From positions 1,816-65,815 of the forward strand of contig CBFDTD010000003.1 of assembly GCA_965612745.1 (NCBI GenBank): DNA of 64,000 nt, in the 5' to 3' direction. The DNA comes from an uncultured bacterium (GTDB lineage: Bacteria; Chloroflexota; Anaerolineae; B4-G1). The position numbers and the translations under genes were made by a program. Under the pieces are notes generated by a model. It was not told the origin of the DNA, did not search any database, and was given only the letters and a program-made list of their open reading frames with translations. Numbering within the stretch: the stretch's first letter is position 1; every line of letters begins with the position of its first letter. Positions 4,940 through 62,757 of the stretch are shown here, in pieces.

Positions 4940-5386
4940 TTATTTGCCTTTGACTTTGATGACCTTTGGCTTTGTCTCCTCGGACTTAGGCAGAGTGAGC
5001 GTCAGCACGCCGTTCTCGAAGACCGCCTCGGCCTTATCTGCATCCACAGGCACGTTGAGCGTCAGCGTGCGCGAGAAGGCACCATAAGGCCGTTCCTGGA
5101 ACAGGTACTCGACGTTCTCCAGCGGCGGCCGCAACTCCCCCCGGATGCTCAGAGTGTCACCTTCAATGGTAATATCCACCTCATCAGGGGTCAGCCCTGG
5201 CAACGATGCGGTGATGACAATCTCCTCCGGGGTCGTGTACACGTCTAGTGGGAGCCGGAACGGACGCTCCCGTGTGCCCTCTCCCCAATTTCGTGTCGGG
5301 CGCACGAAACTTTCCTCAAAGAGCCGATCCATTGCCTCGCGCAAGGTCATCATCTCGCGCCATGGATCCCAACGTGTCATAGTCAT
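4940..5386 (-). CDS. Hsp20/alpha-crystallin family small heat-shock protein
   Basis: 148 aa. Alpha-crystallin domain pattern (LPLDVYTTPEEIVITASLPG...AVFENGVLTLTLPK). RBS GGGAGGTGAT. Confidence 0.85.
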   Translation of the reverse strand: MTMTRWDPWREMMTLREAMDRLFEESFVRPTRNWGEGTRERPFRLPLDVYTTPEEIVITASLPGLTPDEVDITIEGDTLSIRGELRPPLENVEYLFQERPYGAFSRTLTLNVPVDADKAEAVFENGVLTLTLPKSEETKPKVIKVKGK

Positions 5387-5452
5387 CTCATCACCTCCCT
5401 GCTTTCATAGGGACTTGTGGGGGGAGATTCAATCTCCCCCCATATTTGCTGA

Positions 5453-5908
5453 TTACTTGCCCTTGGCCTTGACCTTGATCGTCTTGGGCCTGACCTCTTC
5501 GGCCTTGGGCAGGGTCAAGGTCAGAATACCGTTCTCGAACTCGGCCTCTGCGTCGTCGGCCACGACCGGGACCGGCAGAGTTAGCGAACGGCAGAAGGAG
5601 CCATAGCGACGCTCACGGCGAATGTAATTCTCCTCTTTGACCTCTTCCTCAGCCTTGGTCTCGCCCTTAATGGTCAGGGTGTCGCCAGCGATGCTGACAT
5701 CCACATCCTCGGGCTTGACGCCGGGAATGGCCGTCTTGACAACGATGGCGTCATCGGTCTCATACATGTCTACGGCCAACGTTTCCGCCCCTAACGGGGC
5801 CAGCCACCCGGTTCGCGGCCTCACAAAACTTTCCTCAAAGAGTCTGTCCATCGCCTCCCGCAGGCTGATCAGGTCACGGAAGGGCTCCCAACGCACCAGA
5901 CTTGTCAT
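5453..5908 (-). CDS. Hsp20/alpha-crystallin family small heat-shock protein (tandem paralogue)
   Basis: 151 aa, similar to the downstream copy (LAVDMYETDDAIVVKTAIPG...AEFENGILTLTLPK). Confidence 0.85.
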   Translation of the reverse strand: MTSLVRWEPFRDLISLREAMDRLFEESFVRPRTGWLAPLGAETLAVDMYETDDAIVVKTAIPGVKPEDVDVSIAGDTLTIKGETKAEEEVKEENYIRRERRYGSFCRSLTLPVPVVADDAEAEFENGILTLTLPKAEEVRPKTIKVKAKGK

Positions 5909-17757: not shown

Positions 17758-17804
17758 CCAAAGATCCAACCCCGATAAATCGGGGCCTCCGTCGAGTTTT
17801 GCAC

Positions 17805-17903
17805 GGGTGTGGCTAAAATCAGTGGGACGTCCGGCTTCAGCCGGAAAATCCCCGCTGAAGCGGGGCCTCCGGCCTTTTCTCCCCACGAATTTTAGCCAGA
17901 CTC
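17805..17903 (+). mobile_element. MITE-A full copy (99 bp), TIR GGGTGTGGCTAAAAT / ATTTTAGCCAGACTC, flanked by 9-bp TSD GTTTTGCAC
   Basis: Direct repeat GTTTTGCAC at 17796-17804 and 17904-17912. Terminal inverted repeats of about 15-18 bp. Internal hairpins CCGGCTTCAGCCGG and CCCCGCTGAAGCGGGG. Confidence 0.8.
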
Positions 17904-33378: not shown

Positions 33379-33466
33379 GGGTGTGGCTAAAATCAGTGGG
33401 ACGTCCGGCTTCAGCCGGAAAAGCCCCGCCTCCGGCCTTTTCTTCCCACGAATTTTAGCCAGACTC
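33379..33466 (+). mobile_element. MITE-A copy (88 bp, internal 11-bp deletion) with TSD CCGGTCAT
   Basis: Flanking direct repeat CCGGTCAT at 33371-33378 and (T)CCGGTCAT at 33467-33475. Confidence 0.75.
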
Positions 33467-33885
33467 TCCGGTCATCACCTGGCTGTTGTAATATTGCTCT
33501 GTATGGTCACATCCTCCGCTCAAGCGAGTTAGGATGTGTCACGGCCAGGCAACGACCTCTGCCTCTTGCTCGAAGAGGGTCGGGGATTGAGGTTATACGC
33601 CCCGGCTGTTCATTGACGAATGTTGGAGCAAGAGGGAGGGGTTGTGCGTGCCTGGTATTAAGTCTATGCGGGCGGATGCTCCCTCTACCTCTGGGGAATT
33701 GGCCGCCGGGTGTCCCCAGGCCGATTGGGTCTGGAGGCCAGGAGGGCGATGCAGGGCGGGTTTGGAAGAAAGAGTGAAGTGAACAATATTGGAGATACTG
33801 TTGCCGTCGTGGTGTGGACATCTGGAGAACCGCTGATCGTGCCTGATGCTCGCACTGGTTCCTACCGCTGTGTGGAGGTGGCACA

Positions 33886-34146
33886 ATGAGCATCGCCATA
33901 CCCGCCGTTGAAAGAGCGCAGATTATAAGCAAGGAAAGTGTCGAATCACTCGTCGAGGCTTTGTTCTCCCTAGATGAGCCCTGGCGGGGGCGCTTTCTAA
34001 CCTTGGTGGCTAAGCAGGCCACGAGGTGGAAGTGGGATGGACAACGGCCAGGATGGGAGGAGATGGTAGCCTGGTTGAGTACCGACCCGTGCTTGTACCG
34101 GGAAGTGGCGCTGCTGCTGGATGCGTGGCGGAGACCGGCGAGATGA
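33886..34146 (+). CDS. Hypothetical 86-aa protein between two MITE-A copies
   Basis: RBS GGAGGTGG then ATG. No recognised domain. Confidence 0.4.
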   Translation: MSIAIPAVERAQIISKESVESLVEALFSLDEPWRGRFLTLVAKQATRWKWDGQRPGWEEMVAWLSTDPCLYREVALLLDAWRRPAR

Positions 34147-34162
34147 CCGATCCCAATCATTG

Positions 34163-34256
34163 GGGTGCCGCTAAAATCGGTTGGACGTCCGGCTTCAGCC
34201 GAAAAATCCCCGCTGAAGCGGGGCGTTTGGCCTCTCCTCCCATTCATTTTAGCCAA
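34163..34256 (+). repeat. Degenerate MITE-A copy
   Basis: GCCGCTAAAATCGGTTGGACGTCCGGCTTCAGCCGAAAAATCCCCGCTGAAGCGGGG...CATTTTAGCCA. Ends are diverged. Confidence 0.6.
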
Positions 34257-35059: not shown

Positions 35060-35390
35060 CCCCACATGCTCCTGCCCCATCCACTGCCACATCCACCAGT
35101 GTGCCGTTACGCCCCGGCACGAAAGTCTGGTGGTATTCGTCGCTCAGGGCATAGGCCACGCTCAAACCAATACTGATTGTACGGAGAGTGCTGCCGGTGG
35201 AAAAGTGGCGGTGTAGCGCCCGCCGGTAGAGCCAGGCTAGCACCCCGTAGGCCACCGCGTGACCGATCTTCTTGAGCAGTATGTCAAGCCAGCGCTCTCC
35301 GATATGTGGCAGGTCTGATCGGGCGGACACCATGAAAATCAGCGCCATCCAGACTAACGGAGGAAACCAATGCCGAAGGAACTGTTTCAC
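34992..35390 (-). CDS. VanZ-family membrane protein
   Basis: ALSDEYHQTFVPGRNGTLVDVAVDGAGA matches the VanZ-like core. Its start overlaps the GT4 stop (ATGA). Confidence 0.6.
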   Translation of the reverse strand: MKQFLRHWFPPLVWMALIFMVSARSDLPHIGERWLDILLKKIGHAVAYGVLAWLYRRALHRHFSTGSTLRTISIGLSVAYALSDEYHQTFVPGRNGTLVDVAVDGAGACGAMLLDWWQERRRALPRQGSAAQ

Positions 35391-36598
35391 TCTTCAACTC
35401 CATAGGCCCGTTCGACCGTCTCCACCAACCGCTCCCACGCGAACCGCTGCCTCACGTCGTTGGCGGCCGCCTGGCCCAACCGCTCTCGCAACTCCCGGTT
35501 CTCCAGCAGCCGCACCACCGCCTCGGCAAACCCCTCTACGTCGCCGGGGGCCACCAGCCAGCCGGTTTCGCCGTGGCGGATGTACTCCCGGTTCTGCCCC
35601 ACCGCCTCGGCCACGACCGGTACACCGGCTGCCAAAAGATCCAGCAATTTCACCGCGCACTTGGTCCGGTTGACCAGCGTGTCGTCGAAGGGGTAGATGG
35701 CGAGGTCAGCCTGGGTGAAGTAGGCTGAGAGTGCCTCGGACTCGACCCAACCGACGTATTCGACCGCATCGGCTAGGCCGGTTTCTTGGGCCAACCCCAG
35801 CAGTTGTTCTTCCTCGCCAAACAATCCTTTCCCTACCACAAGCAGTCGTACCTCCGGCGCCGTTTCACGCACACGGTGCAGCACTTCAATGACGCGACGG
35901 ACGGGGAACTCGAAGAATCTCGTGTATAACAAGATGCAGGATGCAGGATGCGAGGTGCAAGACGGGACATCTCTCGTTTCTTGCTTCCTGCTTCCTGCCT
36001 CCTGCCTCCTGCCTCCTGCCTCCTGCCTCCTTGCCACGCCGTTGGGGACGTAGAACACTTGCTGGGGCGGTACGCCCATTGCCCAAACCAGGCTCTCCAA
36101 TGTGCGGCTGGCGACGGTGACCGCGTTGGCGTGAGTGAGGCCCCAGCGCTCTTGCCAGGCGAAGAAGCGCCGCTGGGCTGGAGTGTAGCCGCCGATCTCA
36201 TTCCAGCCGCCGGGACCCTCCCAGTCATCGGTGTCCACTACCAGGCGCGGTCTGCGCGTGCGGGGGAGGCGGGCCAGCAACCAGTGGGTCAGGCCGCTGT
36301 AGGCTTTAGGTTTAAAGAAGTGCACCACATCGGGGTGCAGGGCCAGCGCCCGGCGGGTCAGCCGAAGGGCGATGAGGGCGTGAAATAGCAGTGGAAGACG
36401 CGGCGGCAGAGAAATGTTCTCGATGTGGATTCCCTCCTTCTCCCAACACCGGCCGGCGTCCTCCGGGTTCTGCCACGGGGGGAGAAGCATGGTCACGGCG
36501 TGACCGCGCACTGCCAGCGCTTTCGCCATCGGCAGCGCGCGTACACTCATCGTGCCTCGGGGCCGCAGCCCGAAGGGGCCGACCATTACGACGTTCAT
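35387..36598 (-). CDS. GT4-family (GT-B) glycosyltransferase containing an in-frame heptanucleotide-repeat insertion
   Basis: N-domain MNVVMVGPFG...; C-domain EAVGQNREYIRHGETGWLVAPGD (E-x7-E region). An insert RRQEAGGRRQEAGSRKQETRD is encoded by a (CAGGAGG)n repeat. Confidence 0.75.
   Translation of the reverse strand: MNVVMVGPFGLRPRGTMSVRALPMAKALAVRGHAVTMLLPPWQNPEDAGRCWEKEGIHIENISLPPRLPLLFHALIALRLTRRALALHPDVVHFFKPKAYSGLTHWLLARLPRTRRPRLVVDTDDWEGPGGWNEIGGYTPAQRRFFAWQERWGLTHANAVTVASRTLESLVWAMGVPPQQVFYVPNGVARRQEAGGRRQEAGSRKQETRDVPSCTSHPASCILLYTRFFEFPVRRVIEVLHRVRETAPEVRLLVVGKGLFGEEEQLLGLAQETGLADAVEYVGWVESEALSAYFTQADLAIYPFDDTLVNRTKCAVKLLDLLAAGVPVVAEAVGQNREYIRHGETGWLVAPGDVEGFAEAVVRLLENRELRERLGQAAANDVRQRFAWERLVETVERAYGVEE
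35984..36032. repeat. Heptanucleotide tandem repeat (CYTCCTG)x7 inside the GT4 coding sequence
   Basis: CTTCCTG CTTCCTG CCTCCTG x4 CCTCCTT. An adjacent (ATGCAGG)x2-3 repeat lies at 35937-35958. Confidence 0.85.
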
Positions 36599-36671
36599 AC
36601 CCCCTCAACAACGAACAGCCGGGGCACGGAGATACACGGCCCCGACACTCACACTACTCACCAAGTTGAGA

Positions 36672-37081
36672 TTAACGCCCGCCGATACCCTTGCTATGGG
36701 CAAGGATTGACTCAGGCCCAACGACCCTCAAACCATCTGCATCAAACATCTGCCAGTCACCAACGTCGTAGGTGTAGACTTTGCGCACCCCTGCAACCAA
36801 CGCCGCTGCTGCGTGGCGGGCATCGTGCACCCGTCTTGCGGTGAGGCCGTGACTGGCTGCCAATTCGACCGCAAGCAGGATCACCTCAGCGCTCCATATA
36901 CCTCACTCAGAATGCCAGCCGTAGTGCAGGCAAACAACTCACCACGACGTGCGCGCTCGACTAACAGCCGCGCCTCCTGATGGCGAGGATCCCCCTTGAG
37001 CAGAGCCCCGATAAAGACGCCCGCGTCCAATAGCACGCTCTGGGACACATTGCCTCCCTTAACTCTCGGCATAGACGGCAT
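36672..37081 (-). pseudogene. PIN-domain VapC toxin split by a frameshift into two ORFs (36881-37081 and 36672-36884)
   Basis: N-terminal part VLLDAGVFIGALLKGDPRHQEA; C-terminal part LTARRVHDARHAAAALVAGVRKVYTYDVGDWQMF. The two frames overlap at GTGA and are fused by a 1-nt shift. Confidence 0.55.
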
Positions 37082-37271
37082 CCTTCCAACCTCTGGGCAC
37101 GTAGCCTTCTAATACAGGAAGTGGTTTTAGGCGCGGCCTCGGCTCAATGGTGACTTCCTCGCCGTCGGGCATACGTACAACGAGGCGTGTATAGCGCCTA
37201 GCCACGTCCCACAACACCTCTTCCAAGGACCGCTCCTTAATATCATCCAACACCAGAGTTTGGGTCGTCAT
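37059..37271 (-). CDS. Putative VapB-type antitoxin
   Basis: 70 aa. RBS GGAGGT 6 nt before ATG. Directly upstream of, and overlapping, the PIN gene. Confidence 0.5.
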   Translation of the reverse strand: MTTQTLVLDDIKERSLEEVLWDVARRYTRLVVRMPDGEEVTIEPRPRLKPLPVLEGYVPRGWKDAVYAES

Positions 37272-37383
37272 GTCCTTACCTCCAACAACGCCACTCCTGC
37301 GCCGCATCTACATACCCCACCGGCTATGAGAAAGCAACCATCGGGCCGCAGCCCGAAGGGGCCGACCATCACGATGTGCATAT

Positions 37384-39225
37384 TCACTCCACGGTAACAC
37401 TCTTCGCGAGATTTCTGGGTTGGTCCACGTCGCAGCCTCGCCGCACTGCCAGATGATACGCCAGCAATTGCAGCGGCACGACGTTGACCACCGGTGAAAG
37501 CAGCGGCGGCGTCGGTGGGGCGTAGAGCACGTAGTCGGCTTTGGTTGTGATGTCCCCGTCCCCTTCCGTCGCCAGTGCGATGACGATGCCACCTCGCGCT
37601 TTGACCTGCTCGACCTGGCTCACCATCTTGTCGTAGACATGGTCGCGTACGGCGATGGTGACGACGGGCATCGCCTCGTCAATGAGCGCGATAGGGCCGT
37701 GTTTCATCTCCCCGGCCGGATAGCCCTCGGCGTGGATGTAGGAAATCTCTTTCAGTTTAAGCGCCCCTTCCAGAGCGATGGGATAGTTGATGCCCCGGCC
37801 CAGGTACAGGAAATGCTCCCGATCGTAGAAGATATTAGCCAGTTGCTCGTATTCGTCGCCGTGGTTCAGAGTGCGACCCACCATGTCCGGCAGTCGGGCC
37901 AGGTCGTTCACCAGATGCCGCAACTGCGCTCTCTCTAGCACGCCGCGCAGTTCCCCCAGATAGCAGCCCAACAGGTAGAGGTCCACCAGGCTAGCAGTGA
38001 ACGCTTTGGTCGAAGCCACGCCAATCTCTGGGCCGGCGTGCATCAGGATGTAGCCGTCGGAGAGGCGCATCGCCTGGCTGCCGATGACGTTGACGATGCT
38101 CCACAGCCCTGCTCCCTTCGCCCGCGCCTCTTCCATCGCTGCCAACGTGTCCACCGTCTCACCGCTCTGCGTGATGGCCAGCACGGCAGTGTTCTCATTG
38201 ATGATGGGGTCGCGGTAGCGGAACTCGGAGCCGTAGTCCACCTCGACCGGCACGCGGGCCAGCGCCTCCAGAATGAACTTGCCCACGAGGCCGGCGTAGG
38301 CCGAGGTGCCGCAGGCGACGATAATCACTTTCTCCAACGAGCATGCCTTCTCCGGCGTCAATTCCAGATGCTCCAGTCGCACCCGCCCGGCGTCGAAGTC
38401 GGCCCGGCCGCGGATGGTATCAGTGACGGAGCGGGCCTGCTCGTAGATTTCCTTCTGCATAAAATGACGGAACTCCCCCTTGGCCGCTGCCACGGGGTCC
38501 CAGGGTATGGTGTGCACCTCTGCTGTGACCGGCTCGCCACTCAGCGTCGTCACCCGCGCCCCGTCCCGAGTCACCACTGCCATCTGCCGGTCTTCGAGGA
38601 AGATCATCCGGCGGGTGTGCTCCAGGATGGCGGGGATGTCGGAGGCGACGAACATTTCTCCCTCTCCTATCCCGATGGTGAGGCCACCAGCGTTGCCCAG
38701 GCGAGCGGCAACGATGCGGTCGGGTTCGCGGCTGCTGAGGAAGACGAAGGCGTTGGCCCCTTTTACGTGGGTCAGCGCCCGGCGCACCGCCGTCTCCAGG
38801 TCAGCCCCGCCCGCCATGTACCCCTCGACCAGGTGCACCACCACCTCAGTGTCGGTCTCGGAGGCGAAGCACCGTCCCTCGGCCTCCAGTTCCTGTCGCA
38901 GTTGGAGGAAGTTTTCGATGATGCCGTTGTGGACGACGGCGACCTCGCCGGTGACCCCAACGTGGGGATGGGCGTTGCGGCGACTGGGCTCGCCGTGAGT
39001 AGCCCAACGGGTATGGCCGATGCCGATCTGTCCACTCATCGGCTCGGCGTCCACCAGTTCCATCAGGCGGGCCAGTTTGCCGACCTCGCGTCGCACGGCG
39101 ATGGTGTCGCCCTCGACCACCGCCAGCCCGGCTGAGTCGTAGCCCCGATACTCCAGCCGTTTCAGTCCTTCAAGGATGATGGGGGTTGCGTCTCGCAGCC
39201 CCACGTAGCCGACTATGCCACACAT
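37384..39225 (-). CDS. glmS: Glutamine--fructose-6-phosphate aminotransferase
   Basis: N-terminal MCGIVGYVG (Ntn Cys), two SIS domains, C-terminal VTVE. 613 aa. Confidence 0.9.
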   Translation of the reverse strand: MCGIVGYVGLRDATPIILEGLKRLEYRGYDSAGLAVVEGDTIAVRREVGKLARLMELVDAEPMSGQIGIGHTRWATHGEPSRRNAHPHVGVTGEVAVVHNGIIENFLQLRQELEAEGRCFASETDTEVVVHLVEGYMAGGADLETAVRRALTHVKGANAFVFLSSREPDRIVAARLGNAGGLTIGIGEGEMFVASDIPAILEHTRRMIFLEDRQMAVVTRDGARVTTLSGEPVTAEVHTIPWDPVAAAKGEFRHFMQKEIYEQARSVTDTIRGRADFDAGRVRLEHLELTPEKACSLEKVIIVACGTSAYAGLVGKFILEALARVPVEVDYGSEFRYRDPIINENTAVLAITQSGETVDTLAAMEEARAKGAGLWSIVNVIGSQAMRLSDGYILMHAGPEIGVASTKAFTASLVDLYLLGCYLGELRGVLERAQLRHLVNDLARLPDMVGRTLNHGDEYEQLANIFYDREHFLYLGRGINYPIALEGALKLKEISYIHAEGYPAGEMKHGPIALIDEAMPVVTIAVRDHVYDKMVSQVEQVKARGGIVIALATEGDGDITTKADYVLYAPPTPPLLSPVVNVVPLQLLAYHLAVRRGCDVDQPRNLAKSVTVE

Positions 39226-48316: not shown

Positions 48317-48415
48317 GAGTCTGGCTAAAATTCGTGGGGAGAAAAGGCCGGAGGCCCCGCTTCAGCGGGGATTTTCCGGCTGAAGCCGGACGTCCCACTG
48401 ATTTTAGCCACACCC
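48317..48415 (-). mobile_element. MITE-A full copy (inverted), TSD AAATAATGT / AAATAATAT
   Basis: Flanking 9-bp repeats at 48308-48316 and 48416-48424 (8/9 identical). Confidence 0.75.
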
Positions 48416-48461
48416 AAATAATATTGACGTGCGCGCTCGGATATCGCGTGAGGTGAGCGGC

Positions 48462-59911: not shown

Positions 59912-59933
59912 ATGCCCACCAGATATTGATACG

Positions 59934-60032
59934 AGCCTGGCTAAAATTCGTGGGGAGAAAAGACCGGAGGCCCCGCTTCAGCGGGGATTTTCCGGCTGAA
60001 GCCGGACGTCCCACTGATTTTAGCCACATCCT
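59934..60032 (-). mobile_element. MITE-A full copy (inverted), TSD TATTGATAC
   Basis: Perfect 9-bp direct repeat at 59925-59933 and 60033-60041. Confidence 0.8.
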
Positions 60033-60061
60033 ATTGATACCCGCACTAACAATATTAACCG

Positions 60062-62359: not shown

Positions 62360-62546
62360 TATGTTCCTTGCAAATATCCCACAGCATAGCAGGGTTCACT
62401 GCGGATTCAGAGGCCCTTTCGTAATCCCCTGCCCGGCGATTGAAGTCGCCGGCTACGCGCAGCCAAGTCGGCCTGCGCCGACTTCATAACCGACGCAGGT
62501 CGGTTGCGCAGCACGCGGTTTCAACCACCGTGCCTCCTTTTGATAT

Positions 62547-62645
62547 GAGTCTGGCTAAAATTCGTGGGGAGAAAAGGCCGGAGGCCCCGCTTCAGCGGGG
62601 ATTGTCCGGCCGGAGCCGGACGTCCCACTGATTTTAGCCACACCC
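62547..62645 (-). mobile_element. MITE-A full copy (inverted), TSD TTTTGATAT / TTTTGATGT
   Basis: 9-bp flanking repeats at 62538-62546 and 62646-62654 (8/9). Confidence 0.75.
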
Positions 62646-62757
62646 TTTTGATGTGCACATACGAGTTATGAAAGGCTCACTAGATAAGAAAAACTGAGAG
62701 GGGCAGGCTCTCAGTTCTGGAAGCAAGGCATGTGAATTATAATGCAAAGTGGTCAAT

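Follow-up and report, generated by a model that had tools for sequence, protein, structure and literature searches.

The region immediately downstream of glmS is a classic landing site, the best-known case being the insertion of Tn7-type elements at attTn7. These are recognised by their tnsABC(D) genes, by the Tn7 ends, and by a 5-bp duplication approximately 25 bp downstream of glmS. Other integrative elements replace the end of the gene in which they insert, such as SXT (5′ end of prfC) and e14 and phage 21 (icd). Incoming DNA can also be integrated by homology: both homology-facilitated illegitimate recombination and the single crossover of a circularised fragment have been documented experimentally (PMC3240628), and homology-driven integration has been invoked for orphan immunity arrays (PMC5361080). 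[quoted passage not shown] 2026, PMC13617665).

We analysed a stretch of 64,000 nucleotides (the window) from an uncultured bacterium of the Chloroflexota, contig CBFDTD010000003.1. It contains a TA cassette of approximately 0.74 kb, sited 44–47 nt inside the 5′ end of a gene encoding a GT4 glycosyltransferase, which follows glmS. We favour, with a probability of roughly 0.6, an explanation in which the cassette was captured by homology together with its own GT4 leader and start, leaving a direct repeat as a scar; the structure would have arisen once and then eroded from the toxin. The features of the locus are the following, in the direction of transcription:

37384..39225, minus strand: glmS, glutamine-fructose-6-phosphate aminotransferase, the upstream neighbour (613-aa ORF; Pfam GATase_6/7 and two SIS domains)
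37338..37381, minus strand: vestigial stub, consisting of ~44 nt from the displaced start of the resident GT4 (ATG CAC ATC GTG ... CTG CGG CCC GATGG), recognised from conspecific empty alleles
37343..37369, no strand: glmS-proximal copy of a 27-nt identical core (repeat search, scan, and alignment to conspecific alleles)
37309..37337, minus strand: promoter-like left end of the cassette, with TTGCTT, 17 nt, and a damaged -10 box TATGTA (alignments, by eye)
37059..37271, minus strand: intact gene for an antitoxin of 70 aa, whose N-terminal fold is predicted to be Phd/YefM-like and whose C-terminal tail, LKPLPVLEGxVPxGWKDAxY, is conserved
36881..37048, minus strand: 5′ fragment of the PIN (VapC-type) toxin gene (weak PIN_3/PIN matches; GTG start by homology)
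36886..36887, no strand: scar of a 106-nt internal deletion, i.e., 35 codons and 1 nt (alignment to intact orthologues)
36672..36886, minus strand: 3′ fragment of the PIN toxin gene, shifted to the +1 frame with respect to the 5′ fragment
36599..36671, minus strand: GT4 leader, with a hairpin (GTGAGTGTCGGGGCC...GCCCCGG) and a purine-rich ribosome-binding stretch (homology to locus L026)
36552-36598, minus strand: second repeat copy, the first 47 nt of the functional GT4
36560-36586: GT4-side copy of the 27-nt identical core, within these 47 nt
35387..36598, minus strand: functional copy of the GT4 glycosyltransferase gene (403-aa ORF; Glyco_transf_4 and Glycos_transf_1 domains)

The original prediction, made from the window alone, described a degenerate direct repeat of about 43 bp flanking an antitoxin and a PIN gene, and both the repeat and the content of the cassette are borne out. 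A repeat search pairs 36560-36609 with 37343-37392 (50 nt, 86% identity, spacing of 783 nt), and a separate scan gives 92% identity over 40 nt; the identical core has 27 nt. The 24-mer CCGCAGCCCGAAGGGGCCGACCAT has two exact occurrences in the window, where 0 are expected. Between the copies are the 70-aa ORF and the two PIN fragments. The stop codon of glmS occupies 37384-37386, and the vestigial MHIVMVGPFGLRP reading of the stub has its start codon at 37381-37379, 2 nt further on, which is the position where GT4 begins in other relatives with an empty site. The start of the functional GT4 differs from the stub at three positions (36595, 36592, and 36587 in the SNP table). The boundary of the repeat coincides with the ATG of GT4, which is also the limit of homology, the sequences upstream being unrelated (the end of glmS in one case, an L026-type leader in the other). 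A longer repeat, reaching into the 3′ end of glmS (GTGGAG vs GTTGAG), was rejected because this stretch belongs to the purine-rich ribosome-binding region of the leader shared with L026. Since the cassette brings its own GT4 leader and start, the GT4 gene stays intact and the resident start remains as a stub next to glmS.

The proposed search for an empty site was successful in more distant relatives and also within the species. Ten other contigs encode a GlmS protein identical to that of the window. The empty alleles L118, L119, L122, and L126 share this protein, have flanks 99.5–99.8% identical to the window, and start GT4 2 nt after the glmS stop. Their GT4 begins with the sequence of the stub, with 39/39 identity to 37343-37381, and then continues like the functional gene of the window. 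The cassette segregates as a presence/absence polymorphism in this species. The cassette-linked copy of GT4 departs from the resident start only at +4, +7, and +12; there is no donor tract beyond +12, which places the crossover within +13..+39. A single recombination event within the identical core of 27 nt, the probable crossover segment, separates the filled from the empty alleles. Two further contigs, L125 and L127, terminate exactly at the end of this core, where the filled and empty alleles diverge. Excision between the repeats yields precisely the same allele as the state before integration, and the recombination may have gone in either direction; we lean towards integration into a genome with glmS-GT4, on account of haplotype diversity and of the gene upstream. 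In a comparison of nine consensus metagenome contigs, the first 600 nt of GT4 have 0 SNPs among the five filled haplotypes vs 5 SNP sites among the four empty ones. The gene preceding GT4 is glmS1 in this species and glmS2 in all the other cassette-bearing lineages with the upstream flank in view. In the filled allele, GT4 is presumably uncoupled from glmS by 783 nt.

The PIN gene was initially thought to be split by a 1-nt frameshift. Alignment to the intact orthologues of L007, L083, L084, and L088 reveals instead an internal deletion, with 106 nt missing between 36887 and 36886. The 5′ fragment has 87–89% amino acid identity to the N-terminal part of these orthologues, and its frame ends three codons past the scar. 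The 3′ fragment has 76–83% identity to their C-terminal part and keeps the HDARH and TYDVGDW motifs. The intact orthologues (160–168 aa) match PF01850 at 42.9 bits, with invariant acidic residues D9, E50, D112, and D131; the copy in the window has no intact domain, only two fragments in different frames. All conspecific filled alleles whose sequence spans the PIN gene carry the lesion: L081/L121, L082, L120, and L123 are 99.7–99.97% identical to the window and have no gap inside this gene. The occurrence of the same lesion in five other assemblies excludes a sequencing error, which the original prediction had considered, and its suggestion that the toxin has decayed was correct. The toxin of the window most likely has no present-day activity, and the antitoxin may be an orphan in this haplotype.

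The only indel in these conspecific alignments has 7 nt and affects the promoter region, in L120, L123, and L124. The window lacks these nucleotides (AATAGGA) at about 37312/37311, where conspecific alleles and relatives read TATAAT. The 106-nt loss is common to all filled alleles of the species, and the 7-nt loss in the -10 box is found in the haplotype of the window. The toxin was damaged first and the -10 box later, while the antitoxin ORF is still intact. A consensus promoter scanner called no promoter at the left end of the cassette in the window, and it also misses the intact TTGCTT-17-TATAAT version in L007 and L088. Given that it is blind even to the intact element, the assignment of this putative promoter was made by eye. 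We also considered a translationally coupled leader ORF, since in both the window and L007 the stub ORF ends in an ATGA that overlaps the start of the antitoxin. We treat the overlap as fortuitous because the stub ORF stops earlier in L084 and L088.

The antitoxin matched none of the Pfam and NCBIfam profiles, including those of Phd/YefM, and none of the 121 clusters of its homologues has a Pfam domain. A profile of 35 sequences had no sequence-level match in the PDB. The top PDB matches of its AlphaFold model (pLDDT 85) in Foldseek are YefM and Phd structures (2a6q, 3d55, 3hs2, 7bwf), with probabilities of 0.98–1.0 and rmsd of 1.4–2.8 Å over ~42 residues; the E-values are weak (0.05–0.4) because the domain is small. 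The model therefore suggests that the N-terminal domain has the beta-alpha-beta-beta DNA-binding/dimerisation fold of the Phd/YefM type. A PIN gene or its remnants lie downstream of the antitoxin in all loci inspected. The same order, with small, adjacent, and co-oriented genes, is found in L007, L083-L088, and about 25 metagenome loci.

The junction between the stub and TTGCTTTCTCA is also present in L007, L084, and L088, and L083 has only the last ~7 nt of the stub; all four have an intact PIN gene. The identity between lineages is 77–84% for the cassette and 70–90% for GT4, so that the cassette has diverged as much as GT4 and must be old. The stub is not unusually conserved, since its 77–84% identity between lineages is the same as that of everything else. 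We infer that the structure arose only once and is common to at least four other lineages of Chloroflexota. The leader of the cassette-linked GT4 shares homology over ~65 nt with the sequence that precedes GT4 in L026, a locus that lacks a TA cassette and has a TATAAT box of its own. A diagnostic 15-mer of the leader is confined, among 117 loci, to the window-type cassette loci and L026. The hairpin of the leader folds no better than shuffled sequences and has no match in Rfam, and its interpretation as a terminator, attC site, or riboswitch was rejected on these grounds. No donor-type locus (cassette, leader, and GT4 without the stub) was found among the 134 loci fetched, which counts against the capture reading; L083 was rejected as such a donor because it keeps the end of the stub and has unrelated AT-rich sequence at the start of its contig. 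Cassette-bearing loci do not form one clade in the GT4 tree, whose internal branches are short. This tree and sliding-window identities hint at mosaicism, with too much noise to date events.

How did the repeat arise? The original prediction proposed an insertion that duplicated its target. The insertion of a TA cassette stands, given the empty glmS|GT4 site, while duplication in the sense of a transposon is doubtful. If a transposition-like or staggered-break insertion had copied ~45 nt of the target, both copies should come from the same resident sequence and have diverged later. Here, the stub is the resident allele, and the other copy is a different one, with three differences and a leader of a different allele type, shared with the cassette-free L026. 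The direct repeats coincide exactly with the two ends of the inserted DNA, and target repeats of 47–52 nt flank other TA cassettes in related genomes: those of the VapBC pair of L053/L062 (47–49 nt, 100% identical in L053) and of L090 (52 nt, same TA family as the window) resemble a genuine target duplication more closely. In the L053 cassette, a putative piece of a histidine-kinase gene at the left end was considered as a sign of the capture of arbitrary DNA and rejected, since Pfam does not support it. Against a duplication of this kind at our locus, the start codon of GT4 is where the repeat begins, the repeat search detected no inverted repeats at either end of the cassette, and the same TA family lacks a flanking repeat in about 20 other contexts, so that such a repeat is not a general trait of the family. 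We thus regard target-site duplication as quite unlikely. A satellite or remnant of an integrative element, with the repeats as attL/attR, a surrogate 5′ end for the target, and an integrase lost or acting in trans, is very doubtful. It would account for the gene end restored by an element-borne copy between direct repeats, for the identical junction in five lineages, and for a clean polymorphism with a precise empty site. Yet, no transposase, integrase, or recombinase gene was called in or adjoining the cassette in the window, L007, L081-L084, L088, and L118-L127. The cargo is the TA pair alone, with no other ORF, and the same family is found elsewhere without such repeats. No relatives turned up on viral contigs, which also led us to reject carriage by phages.

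A purely vertical history is possible, if rather unlikely. It would involve one ancient insertion, a precise loss of glmS2 in this lineage, and empty alleles produced by later deletion between the repeats, with no lateral re-integration. The divergence of the cassette tracks that of GT4, deletion between repeats of 27–40 nt is easy and gives exactly the observed empty allele, and a dead toxin imposes no penalty on the loss of the cassette. This history requires an additional precise deletion of 1.9 kb to remove glmS2, and it fits poorly with the higher diversity of empty than of filled haplotypes near the junction and with the scattering of cassette-bearing loci in the GT4 tree, with the caveat of its short internal branches. 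All sequences are metagenomic and 40-nt repeats can mislead short-read assemblers, but an artefact (collapsed repeat, chimera, or false frameshift) has a negligible probability: the structure is the same, to the base, in six assemblies that come from different samples, and four other lineages have the same architecture. Homology-driven capture fits better than a staggered-cut duplication, given that two distinct alleles form the repeat, that its boundary falls on the start codon of GT4, and that inverted repeats, transposase, and integrase are lacking. The duplication is bounded by the limit of homology and juxtaposes resident and incoming alleles, as expected from capture. The sequences thus suggest that the direct repeat is the scar of such an event and not the target-site duplication of a transposase.

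In a capture, the strongly conserved first ~40 nt of GT4 would serve as the anchor for the incoming cassette, either by homology-facilitated illegitimate recombination or by the single crossover of a circularised fragment. The resident start would then be displaced into the stub, the leader and start carried by the cassette would take over, and the toxin would be the first to erode. In its classical form, the first of these routes usually ends in the loss of recipient DNA and not in its duplication, which counts against the capture reading for this duplication.

A broader and unlikely extension, which we put forward tentatively, is that these Chloroflexota harbour mobile TA cassettes that need no integrase and use a short conserved piece of a neighbouring host gene or regulatory block as a portable 'att-like' homology. 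A circle would be looped out when the two copies recombine, and one crossover at the same segment would let it back into related genomes. Three further cassettes fit this pattern: the VapBC of L053/L062, the HigBA pair of L074, which lies next to a duplicated aldolase 3′ end, and the cassette of L090. An excised circle would carry the junction leader-ATG AAC GTC GTA-core-GATGGTTGCTTTCTCA.

The type of event is known, and the locus is an ordinary but well-documented case of the arrival, decay, and departure of a selfish cassette. Filled and empty alleles come from one natural population and the crossover is narrowed to a segment of 27 nt, which provides rare sequence-level evidence on the gain and loss of chromosomal TA cassettes without mobility genes. 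The order of decay is documented, from the toxin to the promoter, with the antitoxin still intact, and the antitoxin belongs to an unannotated family whose fold is predicted to be of the Phd/YefM type. In this clade, the glmS|GT4 junction emerges as a landing pad for at least four unrelated TA types. These data make it testable whether short conserved gene ends are general homology 'handles' for the movement of cassettes.

Compared with known systems, the cassette resembles type II VapBC modules whose antitoxin has a Phd/YefM-type N-terminus (e.g., Mycobacterium tuberculosis VapB46, PDB 6jqy). The antitoxin is directly upstream of the PIN toxin, the orthologues keep D9, E50, D112, and D131, and the modelled fold of the antitoxin matches YefM/Phd structures. 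It differs from them by an antitoxin family without Pfam or NCBIfam match, by the distinctive tail, and by the destroyed toxin of the window. With Tn7, it shares the position immediately downstream of glmS, but there are no Tn7 ends, tns genes, or 5-bp duplication; the insertion is inside GT4, with a repeat of 40–47 nt and only TA genes. As in SXT, e14, and phage 21, incoming DNA substitutes the end of a target that stays functional, and the old end remains as a vestigial direct repeat. In contrast to these elements, the unit has only 0.74–0.95 kb and carries no integrase, excisionase, or other cargo. The likeness to homology-facilitated illegitimate recombination and to the single crossover of circles (PMC3240628; PMC5361080) lies in an anchor homologous to the recipient and in the adjoining resident and incoming alleles. 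The difference is that the process is here deduced from sequence and that the traceable anchor, of 27–40 nt, is very short. Finally, the locus resembles the Photorhabdus islets (PMC13617665) in being an integrase-free cassette whose erosion starts with the toxin. The Photorhabdus work reports no duplicated gene ends, whereas at our locus the two alleles, and the segment in which they crossed over, are directly legible in the sequences.

All genes of the cassette region, from glmS to the glycosyltransferase gene GT4, are encoded on the minus strand:

37384-39225, minus strand: glmS, a 613-aa ORF with a GATase and two SIS domains
37381-37338, minus strand: vestigial GT4 start (the stub), beginning 2 nt past the glmS stop
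37337-37309, minus strand: promoter-like stretch next after the stub, assigned by eye
37271-37059, minus strand: intact antitoxin ORF, 70 aa
37048-36881, minus strand: first PIN fragment
36886-36672, minus strand: second PIN fragment
36671-36599, minus strand: GT4 leader, 73 nt
36598-35387, minus strand: GT4 glycosyltransferase, 403 aa

The stub reads ATG CAC ATC GTG ATG GTC GGC CCC TTC GGG CTG CGG CCC GATGG. A repeat search of the window paired 36560-36609 with 37343-37392 (50 nt, 86% identity, spacing 783 nt); the best ungapped stretch is 40 nt at 92%, and a 24-mer taken from the core has exactly two copies in the 64-kb window (0 expected). The degenerate direct repeat of about 43 bp in the original prediction was thus correctly observed. 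Its homology boundary is the GT4 start codon. Further into GT4 (35979-36031), the two halves of the glycosyltransferase are separated by a low-complexity RRQEAGG-type insert; it is encoded by a tandem 14-nt (7-nt) CT-rich repeat, which also yields spurious miRNA-like Rfam matches.

The decisive result is the existence of empty sites in the same species. A look-up of the exact GlmS protein returned ten contigs. The cassette is present in L120, L121, L123, and L124. In L118, L119, L122, and L126, the flanks are 99.5-99.8% identical to the window, the glmS-GT4 gap is 2 nt, and GT4 starts with ATG CAC ATC GTG ATGGTC...CTGCGGCCC CGAGGCACG, which matches the stub at 39/39 positions and then continues as the functional gene. 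The remaining contigs, L125 and L127, terminate exactly where filled and empty alleles diverge, as an assembly-graph branch would give. Empty sites are also found in relatives. We compared GT4 in 80 of them, all Anaerolineae or Thermoflexia MAGs, and in many it starts 0-5 nt past a glmS stop, with empty sites behind glmS1 (L009, L017, L020, L021) or behind its paralogue glmS2, 35-37% identical (L001, L004, L010, L011, L014, L039, L041). The cassette is an insertion, as originally proposed. The second glmS-like gene, glmS2, lies between glmS and GT4 in L004, L005, L010, L011, L014, L039, L041, L057, and L084; the window's species lacks it, and only a glmS2-like 3' end is left in L002 (2643-2790).

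Three positions alone, 36595, 36592, and 36587, distinguish the cassette-linked GT4 start from the stub and from the empty allele (codons AAC GTC GTA versus CAC ATC GTG), and filled and empty alleles are identical from +13 of GT4 onward; they are therefore related by one recombination within the 27-nt identical core (37343-37369 / 36560-36586). Either the repeats recombined to delete the cassette, or a single crossover integrated it. Integration into a glmS1-GT4 background seems the somewhat likelier direction: glmS2 is upstream in every other cassette-bearing lineage with the upstream flank in view (L007, L084, L088), so vertical descent would need an extra, precise loss of glmS2, and the first 600 nt of GT4 show 0 SNPs among five filled haplotypes and five variable sites among four empty ones. 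Farther from the junction, SNPs are shuffled between the two classes in this small sample, which indicates a recombining population.

Loci L007, L084, and L088 have the architecture of the window behind glmS2 (stub, TTGCTTTCTCA...TATAAT, antitoxin, PIN, leader, GT4). In a further locus, L083, whose cassette is 99% identical to that of L007, all but the last ~7 nt of the stub is gone; in its place, at the contig start (1-58), lies unrelated AT-rich sequence with TTCGTGAGTCAA repeats inside it, perhaps one end of a repeated element. Since the cassette has diverged between lineages on par with GT4 (77-84% and 70-90% nucleotide identity), we infer that the stub-cassette-leader structure is old and of single origin.

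The repeat had been taken for a target duplicated by the insertion. We disfavour a transposase target duplication because the called genes, ORFs, and repeat search revealed no inverted repeats, transposase, or recombinase in any cassette lineage, because the repeat starts at the GT4 ATG, and because the flanking repeat is absent from about 20 other genomic contexts of this TA family. Moreover, the ~65 nt 5' of the functional GT4 copy, hairpin included, share homology with the leader that precedes GT4 in L026, a locus with its own TATAAT box, an FAD-oxidoreductase neighbour, and no TA cassette; a diagnostic 15-mer of this leader is confined to these leader-bearing loci among 117. The two copies are distinct alleles, one resident and one incoming, which also speaks against duplication. 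The repeat is better read as the putative scar of a homology-driven capture, anchored in the conserved 5' end of GT4. Capture could have proceeded by homology-facilitated illegitimate recombination or by a circularised fragment integrating through a single crossover, both experimentally documented, the latter with duplications of 109-950 bp (PMC3240628). The former has also been proposed to explain arrays of orphan immunity genes (PMC5361080).

The toxin has decayed since the insertion, as originally suggested, by a lesion other than the claimed 1-nt frameshift. Orthologues in L007, L083, L084, and L088 encode an unbroken PIN protein of 160-168 aa (42.9 bits against PF01850, cut-off 23.6) with invariant D9, E50, D112, and D131. 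Against these orthologues, an uninterrupted run of 106 nt (35 codons plus one base) is missing from the window, a deletion that removes the central part of the domain and changes the reading frame. Sequencing error is excluded because four assemblies from different samples (L081/L121, L082, L120, L123) span PIN without a gap, at 99.7-99.97% identity to the window; a fifth, L124, covers only the cassette start. The deletion is common to every conspecific filled allele covering PIN. The sole indel across the cassette in these assemblies concerns 7 nt of the promoter region: L120, L123, and L124 retain GGGGTATAATAGGAGTAGATG, and the window and L081/L121, which covers the stretch, have lost AATAGGA, leaving TATGTA. 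The antitoxin ORF is intact, and its variation is limited to two polymorphisms, one synonymous and the other terminal and non-synonymous. Broken PIN genes of this family also occur in L110, L111, L115, and L129-L131, and no PIN was called in L128.

The antitoxin has no sequence-level match in Pfam, NCBIfam, or PDB. Its family comprises about 120 clusters of 66-71 aa proteins, with a PIN gene or its remnants 3' of the antitoxin in every locus inspected. In an AlphaFold model built with 35 homologues (pLDDT 85), the N-terminal beta-alpha-beta-beta domain has YefM and Phd antitoxins as top Foldseek matches in PDB (probability 0.98-1.0, rmsd 1.4-2.8 A over ~42 residues, with weak E-values owing to the small size of the domain), and the VapB46 N-terminal domain is also matched. 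The module is thus a VapBC-type pair whose antitoxin has a predicted Phd/YefM fold.

In this clade, the region 5' of GT4 serves as a landing pad for TA cassettes. Besides the window-type cassette, it harbours DUF433 + DUF5615 (L005, L008; remnant in L057), a 94-aa ORF + PIN (L060, L061), and a different VapBC on the opposite strand of the glmS1-GT4 intergenic region (L053:4983-5992, L062:5003-5992). The latter is flanked by target direct repeats of 47 nt (100% identical) and 49 nt (90%), respectively, made of a terminator hairpin and TATAAT promoter block, and has an empty site in L065 (640-800). Elsewhere, in L074 (9924-11914), a KDPG/KHG aldolase gene is followed by HigB/HigA and by an F420H2-quinone-reductase-like ORF. 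The 3' end of the aldolase gene recurs there in vestigial form (71 nt at 86%; the translations are similar over about 55 residues in total), a gene-end duplication of the kind found in the window. The TA island L090 (2200-5800) contains, in order, a DUF433-like + DUF5615-like pair, a member of the window TA family with 52-nt flanking repeats containing a terminator hairpin, and a 488-aa transposase-like ORF. In L085-L087 (L085:3790-4870), this family (antitoxin 66% identical) lies between beta-eliminating lyase and HD-domain genes; a single ~55-nt palindromic REP-like unit precedes it and three more follow.

The window contains a dispersed REP-like double-hairpin element (CCGGCTTCAGCCGG ... 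CCCCGCTGAAGCGGGG), whose first hairpin occurs 13 times where 0.08 are expected (6090, 9300, 17623, 17831, 33405, 34189, 39324, 41879, 41929, 41952, 48376, 58829, 59992), with longer copies of ~100 nt at 17802-17903, 48317-48416, 59926-60038, and 62540-62652. Two copies, spaced by 784 nt, nearly the spacing of the TA-cassette repeat, bracket two overlapping small ORFs adjoining scpA, of 46 aa (33749-33889) and 86 aa (33886-34146), neither with a Pfam match; this region (33379-34213) could be another small cassette. A 41-nt repeat at 4940-5908 merely reflects the paralogy of two tandem co-oriented small heat-shock-protein-like genes (148 and 151 aa).

We regard the locus as of moderate interest, for its clean allele pair and because conserved gene ends may act as attachment handles that need no integrase. 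It is a VapBC-type module, and a case of TA acquisition and erosion, both of known kinds: toxin-first erosion and integrase-free TA islets have been described in Photorhabdus (PMC13617665), and the erosion pattern matches that of the window cassette.
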